From Octopus vulgaris (Eukaryota), in assembly GCA_951406725.2 (NCBI GenBank), contig OX597822.1, positions 43,090,001 to 43,154,000 of the forward strand: 64,000 bases of DNA, given 5' to 3'. The notes under the pieces were generated by a model that made no database searches, had not been told where the DNA came from, and saw only the letters and a program-made list of their open reading frames with translations. Made by a program: the position numbers and the translations under genes. Shown here piece by piece: positions 19,512 to 21,134 of this stretch. Every line of letters begins with the position of its first letter. Position 1 is the first letter of the stretch.

Positions 19512-19807
19512 ATATATATATATATATATATATATATATATAATTAAAATCACAATAAGGGTGAAAAAATTGAATATTAATTAATAACATCAATTTAAAA
19601 CACCAAGTGGCCTAGCGTAAAAAAACTGAGATACAGTAAAAAACTTTTAATACAAGTAATAAGAGAGAGACCACATGTGGTCACTCTAACGCTAGAAATA
19701 GATCTGCAAAGGGAATCCACCACTAAAGAATTGTTCTCAAGTATTAATTCAACACGCCAAGAATGTAAGCGGGCAGGACAAATGAATAATAACGAAAAAA
19801 TAGATTA

Positions 19808-19883
19808 ACTCTATACAATTGTTTCATCGTTTATAGATTGTGTAATTTTACTTACGTAATCATTTTCGAATCCTCAGTAGAGT
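19808..19883 (-). ncRNA. Type I hammerhead ribozyme motif (copy 1)
   Basis: actcta CTGAGGA ttcg...cgat GAAA caattg TA tagagt; 6 bp stem I, palindromic stem III. Confidence 0.8.
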
Positions 19884-20332
19884 ATATCAAAAATATAATT
19901 TGCTGAACCGAACGCCAAAATCCATACGAAGCCGAGCAAAGGCGAACGGCACAGCCGATTATATTTGCAGTTACGTTCAAATATCCTCATTTTCGGCGCG
20001 TTGAAAATACCGGATGTAAATACTACCCCAGTAATTTACTGCCGGTTTGAGAACATATTAATTTATAATTAAAATCACAATAAGGGTGAAAAAATTGAAT
20101 ATTAATTAATAACATCAATTTAAAACACCAAGTGGCCTAGCGTAAAAAAACTGAGATACAGTAAAAAACTTTTAATACAAGTAATAAGAGAGAGACCACA
20201 TGTGGTCACTCTAACGCTAGAAATAGATCCGCAAAGGGAATCCACCACTAAAGAATTGTTCTCAAGTATTAATTCAACACGCCAAGAATGTAAGCGGGCA
20301 GGACAAATGAGAAATAACGAAAAAATAGATTA

Positions 20333-20408
20333 ACTCTATACAATTGTTTCATCATGTATAGATTGTGTAATTTTACTTACGTAATCACTTTCGAATCCTC
20401 AGTAGAGT
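20333..20408 (-). ncRNA. Type I hammerhead ribozyme motif (copy 2)
   Basis: Same core and stem I as copy 1, 525 bp away. Confidence 0.78.
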
Positions 20409-21134
20409 ATATCAAAAATATAATTTGTTGAACCGAACGCCAAAATCCATACGAAGCCGAGCAAAGGCGAACGGCACAGCCGATTATATTTGCAGTTACG
20501 TTCAAATATCCTCATTTTTTAATTAATACTTGAGAACAATTCTTTAGTGCTGGATTCCCTTTGCAGATCTATTTCTAGCGTTAGAGTGACCACATGTGGT
20601 CTCTCTCTTATTACTTGTATATATATATATATATATATATATATATACACACACACACACATATATATATATATATATATACATATATATACACACACAC
20701 ACACACACACACACATATATATATATATATATATATATATATATATCAACTGAAATAAGTAAATGATAAATGAAAGATATATGACTAAATTGCTTATAAA
20801 TTCGCTTTCTCCTAATCCTGAACTATCAATAGCACTGCATGAGGTCCTGGACAATTATCTTCTAATATTGTCTTGGAGAGATGGAAACTATTTGAATGGA
20901 CTGCACTTATTATTCGATGTCATGCTCTTTCTGAAAATGGATTATGTTGAATAAACGAAAGCCTACGGAATATTCAGTCATCTAACTAGACACTCGTCAT
21001 CGCAACCGACTGAGACACCTCTCCTTTATAACCTTCCTTCCTTCTTTCCTTCCTTCCTTCCTTCCTTCCTTCCTTTCTTCCTTTCTAGCTATTGTTCTGT
21101 CTGTCATATGACAGCTGGTTATGACATATGACAT

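Follow-up and report, generated by a model that had tools for sequence, protein, structure and literature searches.

What kind of element gave rise to a head-to-tail 525-bp repeat, with one hammerhead motif per unit and an inverted segment at its end, between two microsatellite tracts of the Octopus vulgaris genome, and which enzyme and which RNA put it there? Here, the 64-kb stretch of DNA that contains the repeat (the window; GCA_951406725.2, contig OX597822.1, positions 43,090,001 to 43,154,000) was analysed, following an earlier note that had described the repeat from its sequence alone. Our results suggest, with a probability of roughly 0.75, that the locus is an insertion of a many-copy non-coding hammerhead repeat, which by its layout is a non-LTR retrozyme and was likely mobilised in trans by a Penelope-like element (PLE).

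Organization of the array

In plus-strand order, the locus is made up of (TA)n, unit 1, unit 2, TT, inverted piece and (TA)n(CA)n:

19512–19542, no strand: left (TA)n target tract, read from the sequence; its last 4 nt, TATA (19539–19542), are common to the unit
19539–20063, minus strand: unit 1, the complete 525-bp repeat; 33.5% GC, no ORF longer than 69 codons
19539–19649, minus strand: the 'tail', about 110 bp between two recurrent 3′ ends, at one insertion end only
20064–20518, minus strand: unit 2, a 5′-truncated tandem copy of 455 bp with 7 differences from unit 1
20519–20520, no strand: TT filler at the head-to-head junction
20521–20620, plus strand: inverted 5′-truncated copy of unit positions 19650–19749; its outer end is the family's major 3′ end
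20618–20746, no strand: right (TA)n/(CA)n tract, read from the sequence; its first 3 nt are common to the inverted piece

The array has a gap-free period of 525 bp and comprises 1.87 units in total. The earlier note had reported two nearly identical units; the head-to-tail arrangement and the near identity hold (7 mismatches in 455 positions), but the second unit is incomplete. It had also stated that the units have no ORF, which agrees with a longest open frame of 69 codons on either strand of the circularised unit, and that a 100-bp inverted copy closes the array, which is correct, this piece being the reverse complement of 19650–19749 with one difference from unit 1 and two from unit 2. Within the 64-kb window, no further copy of the unit was found. 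A comparison of repeat layouts found no LTR–internal–LTR arrangement at the array, and the element contains no match to the Pol III A or B box consensus. A coding remnant was not found in the unit, the best tblastn match to 14 PLE proteins having an E value of 0.038. An assembly artefact was ruled out because each unit has private differences and other copies share the insertion ends. A fragment at 19440–19510, immediately before the left (TA)n tract, possibly resembles a tRNA-derived SINE.

Copies at other loci

Parts of the unit were present in 20 of 24 sequencing runs (10 studies, 4 organism labels). When contigs from four runs (X1, X7, X4 and X11) were aligned to the unit at 85% likeness, 717, 475, 561 and 20 contigs, respectively, matched it with varied flanks; these figures are not copy numbers, and the 20 contigs from X11, guessed to be an RNA run, are uninformative for expression or ends. 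The letters of unit 1 at 19787 and 19832 occur in none of the aligned contigs, which therefore represent other copies. Three contigs from two of the four runs contain a head-to-tail joint with letters unlike those of the window. The 525-bp repeat is a multi-copy family at many loci, not a single-locus sequence. The alternative that the earlier note had named, a simple local duplication at a single locus, fails in view of the 475–717 contigs with varied flanks per DNA-type or unlabelled run.

Summed depth along the unit, which is not copy number, rises 6–9-fold at 19650 (from 3153 to 27563 in X1, from 2893 to 20761 in X7 and from 2404 to 14183 in X4) and drops toward 19900–20000, as expected of 5′ truncation; the dip before 19650 may in part reflect alignment loss in A-tracts. 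In the hammerhead core, N7 is freely variable and G8A makes up about 2% of depth (among the variants listed, 40 of 63), and U4C makes up 27–62% of depth in three runs, a point that was counted against the retrozyme/PLE reading. Apart from these three, no core position was variable among the 40 of 63 variants listed, and one helix I variant retains pairing as U·G. The U4C variant corresponds to C at 19876 and marks a high-depth subfamily.

Several contigs agree with the unit only in the 3′ portion of the hammerhead and in the flank downstream of it (19779–19827), departing from it precisely where helix II begins (19825–19827); they may belong to related families with other helix II sequences. 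Over 19541–20065, places with T>C exceed those with A>G on the plus strand in all four runs (13:5, 13:3, 10:3 and 15:5), even though T (141) is less common in the unit than A (208). Candidate readings of this A>G excess on the RNA strand are wobble tolerance, A-to-I editing before reverse transcription and unpolarised changes.

Insertion ends and the PLE signature

Among the loose contig ends listed (23 of 184), (TA)n adjoins 19650 in at least 24 contigs from three runs (14, 5 and 5) and approximately 19545 in at least three contigs from one run, (AC)n meets 19551 and (TG)n meets 19567 in one contig each, and none has a microsatellite junction at the cut site 19813/14. Free circular permutation of the genomic copies, for which the earlier note had suggested a check, thus finds no counterpart in these ends. 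The insertion at the locus ends at both recurrent sites, at 19539–42 on the left and at 19650 in the inverted piece. In the RNA sense, the 3′ ends at 19650 and 19539–45 lie 164 and about 272 nt past the hammerhead cut. The left end shares 4 nt with (TA)n, as 9 of 415 possible junctions would, and the right end shares 3 nt, as 22 of 415 would. A further feature lies close to the major 3′ end:

19664–19687, minus strand: near-palindromic hairpin; in the RNA sense it precedes the major 3′ end (19650) by 14 nt

This hairpin is a candidate recognition signal.

PLE insertions are described as partial tandems, often with an adjacent inverted 5′-truncated copy, with a bias toward microsatellites and a tail of 30–40 bp at one end (PMC8557442). 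In vitro, a purified PLE (PAc Poseidon) nicks AT-rich DNA on both strands and extends them; synthesis begins, without homology, at two sites within the RNA that lie downstream of its hammerhead and delimit the tail, and unprocessed, uncleaved RNA was preferred (PMC11167929). The partial tandem, the 5′ inversion, the one-sided tail and the (TA)n target support the proposal of the earlier note that the tandem-plus-inverted layout is a PLE-type insertion product. The PLE insertion signature is present here at a repeat without an ORF, and the RT and GIY-YIG ORF of an autonomous PLE is absent. Strict twin priming of the L1 type was ruled out because the copied stretches lie 181 nt apart on the template and are not adjacent.

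Given this signature, the unit could be the pseudo-LTR (pLTR) of an autonomous PLE and the locus a truncated tandem-pLTR insertion rather than an independent retrozyme. All the hallmarks of PLE insertion are compatible with such an origin, retrozymes and pLTRs are related (10.64898/2026.07.22.740005), and 21–52 contigs per DNA-type run extend past the unit ends; moreover, depth is about 10-fold higher at 19650–19830 than at 19900–20000 and some contigs leave the unit at 19825–19827 or 19893, so that the 3′ portion may be common to the unit and some longer relative. However, the tblastn result and the 69-codon frame given above argue against a pLTR, as do the joining of the unit's head to its own tail here and in three contigs elsewhere, a 6-bp helix I together with helix III, unlike minimal pLTR hammerheads (PMC4209133), and the lack of a match to the 3′ regions of the PLE remnants in the window. 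We consider this origin unlikely.

That slippage or repair beside unstable microsatellites duplicated a solo copy at the site and inverted part of it is highly improbable. Microsatellites do lie on both flanks and the inverted piece agrees with unit 1 at the single diagnostic base, but the joint contains no (TA)n remnant and is found in other copies, and a local rearrangement would not pick 19650, the commonest (TA)n junction among the loose ends listed, as the outer end of the inverted piece.

Hammerhead motifs and predicted release of the unit RNA

Each unit has one hammerhead motif on the minus strand, with the letters that the earlier note had quoted (19883–19808 and 20408–20333):

19808–19883, minus strand: motif 1 (type I hammerhead); cut predicted to follow GUA, at 19814/19813
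20333–20408, minus strand: type I hammerhead motif 2, core intact, 3 helix II substitutions, rival hairpin predicted; predicted cut at 20339/20338
19814–20338, minus strand: predicted 525-nt cut-to-cut monomer (folding model only)

The motif is built of a 6-bp helix I, CUGAGGA, a helix II with a U·U mismatch at its base, three basal pairs and a long imperfect hairpin (a 45-nt imperfect helix), GAAA, a helix III of 2 bp that is part of the palindrome ACAAUUGU, and GUA; the predicted cut sites of the two motifs are separated by 525 nt. When both strands of the window were scanned with a descriptor, three matches resulted, namely the two unit motifs and a minimal one at 19294–19341, compared with a mean of 0.04 and a maximum of 1 in 50 dinucleotide shuffles of the window, and the strict core with a 6-bp helix I was matched in none of the 50 shuffles. 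Rfam gave no match at the gathering threshold in the 64-kb window and, at E up to 5, 13 weak matches in 19000–20700, mostly microsatellite artefacts and none of them a hammerhead. The 3′-half motif of the hammerhead had no match in metagenome, viral and prokaryote collections.

The minimal motif at 19294–19341 (minus strand) is a type I hammerhead with a CUGAAGA core, a 6-bp helix II and nearly no helix III; it lies about 200 bp from the element, is unrelated to it in sequence and is PLE-pLTR-like. A relaxed scan also found a hammerhead-like core at 16460 (minus strand), and a lone copy of the helix III palindrome without a core lies at 41225 (minus strand); both are possibly due to chance.

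The earlier note had called the hammerhead well-formed, which is true of the motif in that it is complete, but not of its U·U mismatch, its three basal pairs, its 2-bp helix III or its predicted folding. The active fold of unit 1 is predicted at −6.4 kcal/mol against a local minimum of −9.8 kcal/mol (3.4 above) and that of unit 2 at −4.7 against −13.4 kcal/mol (8.7 above), and the pairing probability of helix III in local folding is at most 0.02. In the whole transcript, the active fold would cost 6.9 kcal/mol for motif 1, 10.1 kcal/mol for motif 2 and 17.0 kcal/mol for both, in folding models that leave out Mg2+, tertiary contacts and co-transcriptional folding. As for a double hammerhead as an easier fold, the model gives it no support in full context, where it lies 22.2 kcal/mol above the predicted minimum. 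The motif minima of −9.8 and −13.4 kcal/mol pass the −5 kcal/mol filter of a 2026 survey (10.64898/2026.07.22.740005), although the minimum is not the active fold.

In these models, the hammerhead is of a weak kind (U·U in helix II, 2-bp helix III, active fold not the minimum), and release of a 525-nt RNA is a prediction, though not a safe one. It is less assured because the active fold is disfavoured and because, of nine predicted dimers of vertebrate (Xenopus) retrozymes, one was cleaved in vitro and eight were not (10.64898/2026.07.22.740005). A short palindromic helix III is the usual build of metazoan hammerheads and permits dimers (PMC4209133). A mussel retrozyme lacks the tertiary contact between helices I and II of canonical type I hammerheads (PMC7229834), and this contact is therefore not required for a retrozyme. 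The closest hammerhead is that of axolotl HHR_Amex2, in which a U·U likewise opens helix II and helix III is 2 bp long with a tetraloop; by itself, this hammerhead cleaved weakly (22% within an hour), and as a dimer it was far more efficient (PMC7229834). The 45-nt imperfect helix II distinguishes the present motif from HHR_Amex2 and from metazoan retrozymes.

Predicted fold of the unit RNA

The circular monomer is predicted to fold at −140.9 kcal/mol with 62% paired (z = −6.4, 40 shuffles), and the antisense strand folds comparably (z = −6.2). Linear permutations range from −135.8 to −149.2 kcal/mol, with −143.4 kcal/mol for the genomic unit and −143.8 kcal/mol for the cut-to-cut unit; a requirement of the fold for the tandem joint was ruled out, since linear permutations fold equally well. 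Covariation was not apparent among the 40 of 63 variants listed: of their 20 paired sites, 9 retain pairing, with 8.1 expected. Tandem units with a type I hammerhead, the lack of coding capacity, the many loci, the GC content and the self-paired monomer together uphold the assignment to non-LTR retrozymes proposed in the earlier note. A long-range helix is predicted within the unit:

19748–19760, minus strand: first strand of a predicted long-range helix of 13 bp, in which the end of the inverted piece (19749) falls
19993–20005, minus strand: the other strand of the predicted helix; unit 2 is truncated at the equivalent of 19993

Four variants keep or add pairs in the helix 19748–65/19988–20005 and one, in a single low-depth contig, breaks one. 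The breakpoints 19993 and 19749 abut opposite ends of the predicted 13-bp helix, a post hoc observation that 148 of 20000 random pairs match equally.

Proposed mechanism and nature of the template

The insertion probably arose as follows. A source array would be transcribed from the minus strand, and the protein of an autonomous PLE, with RT and GIY-YIG endonuclease, would nick both (TA)n strands and prime at 19539–42 and 19650. Both proposed priming sites, which lie downstream of the hammerhead, recur as ends of other copies. One cDNA would run for 980 nt through two uncut hammerhead sites and the other for 100 nt, and the two would be joined head-to-head with TT. The template was perhaps an uncleaved tandem transcript with slightly different units and not one monomeric circle. 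Hammerhead cutting would be slow, possibly in dimers or with the help of protein, and is predicted to yield a 525-nt rod-like RNA able to circularise.

Two hints bear on the template. One is position 19705, where unit 1 agrees with the inverted piece in carrying T but unit 2 carries C, the letter of the family (49416 of 49711 depth in X1); the other is that the breakpoints lie at one helix. Taken together, they slightly favour a tandem template over a circle; the preference is no stronger because each hint is a single event (one base, one junction), and the pattern at 19705 could also be the outcome of two CpG hits or of gene conversion. Both units share letters that are rare or absent in the aligned contigs (19742, 19832) and thus come from one close source. 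A more specific proposal, which we put forward tentatively and consider less likely than not, is that the retrozyme is mobilised by a PLE-like enzyme on uncleaved tandem RNA, starting at two fixed sites about 110 nt apart, with the cDNAs halted at the two ends of the long helix or linked across them. If so, the circle would be a by-product, transposition would proceed without it as an intermediate, and the positions of the inversion breakpoints would be dictated by the long helix.

With the same element and the same PLE partner, the template could instead have been a hammerhead-cut, ligated 525-nt circle copied 1.87 times, a reading that competes with the template step only and that we regard as possible but doubtful. 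This is the model published for retrozymes and the one that the earlier note had adopted. Copying a circle gives cDNA of more than unit length through intact cut sites (PMC7229834, PMC4209133), is in keeping with the rod-like circular fold and with the one close source, and is compatible with fixed start sites. However, it predicts three identical copies, so that T/T/C at 19705 would have to be put down to reversion, to two CpG hits or to conversion; a second pass would find the helix partner already copied, which leaves the stop at 19993 unexplained; the active hammerhead folds are disfavoured in the models (by 6.9 and 10.1 kcal/mol); and the purified PLE preferred unprocessed RNA in vitro (PMC11167929).

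Comparison with known elements and significance

Like metazoan non-LTR retrozymes (PMC7229834; 10.64898/2026.07.22.740005), the family consists of head-to-tail non-coding repeats with consecutive type I hammerheads, a GC content below 50%, a self-paired predicted circle and many copies. Its unit of 525 nt is longer than the 170–400 nt of characterised retrozyme circles and than the 150–450 bp given in PMC7229834, and lies within the 51–972 bp range of the 2026 survey (10.64898/2026.07.22.740005). The active fold is predicted to be blocked in the circle here, unlike in most metazoan retrozymes. The literature searched, with subscription papers and supplements largely outside its scope, yielded no description of tails, inversions or fixed start sites on any retrozyme.

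The locus resembles EN+ PLE insertions (PMC8557442; PAc Poseidon, PMC11167929) in its partial tandem, its inverted 5′-truncated copy, its tail at one end, its two start sites after the hammerhead and its microsatellite target without a readable TSD, but differs from them in a unit without an ORF and in a tail of about 110 bp instead of 30–40 bp. Compared with PAc, the start sites lie further past the cut (164 and about 272 nt), and 3–4 nt of microhomology is found at each of them. Among Chlamys elements, non-autonomous ones such as MRC1 are likewise non-coding and PLE-dependent and form pLTRs in head-to-tail insertions (PMC8557442); however, they are algal, their 3′ end resembles that of the partner and most Chlamys lack a hammerhead, whereas the present unit has a hammerhead and no likeness to a partner was found.

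An origin of retrozymes from PLEs has already been argued in print (10.64898/2026.07.22.740005; review PMC7761336), and PLEs have been termed a 'strong candidate' for moving animal retrozymes (PMC7229834). The 2026 survey argues for the PLE link from co-occurrence and pLTR similarity in vertebrates and calls the mechanism unresolved (10.64898/2026.07.22.740005). The family described here displays the PLE product signature, fixed start sites included, on an ORF-less hammerhead repeat, which bears on both the enzyme and the RNA involved. With its many copies, the choice between circle and tandem template and the role of the helix are addressable by counting ends. The element itself is an ordinary genomic parasite of a known kind; the ends of this copy are a trace of its likely mode of mobility.

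PLE remnants in the window

Remnants of EN+ PLEs with a CX4CX2C linker and GIY-YIG (Neptune/Nematis type) lie in the window:

8432–8680, minus strand: EN+ PLE remnant
8876–9394, plus strand: EN+ PLE remnant
40106–40720, minus strand: EN+ PLE remnant

The CX4CX2C linker has been proposed to direct Neptune to microsatellites (PMC8557442), and the remnant at 8.4 kb continues into (TA)n at 8059. No sequence is common to the 525-bp unit and the PLE remnants of the window, their 3′ regions included. The remnants match RT/GIY-YIG proteins and indicate that candidate partners exist in the genome.

Decayed hammerhead-like motifs with a palindromic helix III were seen by eye downstream of the PLE remnants near 39880 and 8250, the latter apparently with a U3-A8 core variant. 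Short fragments at 18990–19182, 11824–12029, 7772–7963 and 30801–30877 are 78–89% alike and adjoin (TA)n where viewed; they carry, again by eye, a decayed hammerhead-like hairpin and are probably the 5′-truncated ends of another PLE-type family. A 195-bp inverted repeat (10121–10314 and 10502–10696, 98% alike) lies downstream of a GIY-YIG-like frame at 11103–11549 (minus strand), which Pfam did not confirm; this inverted repeat is possibly another PLE insertion with an inversion.
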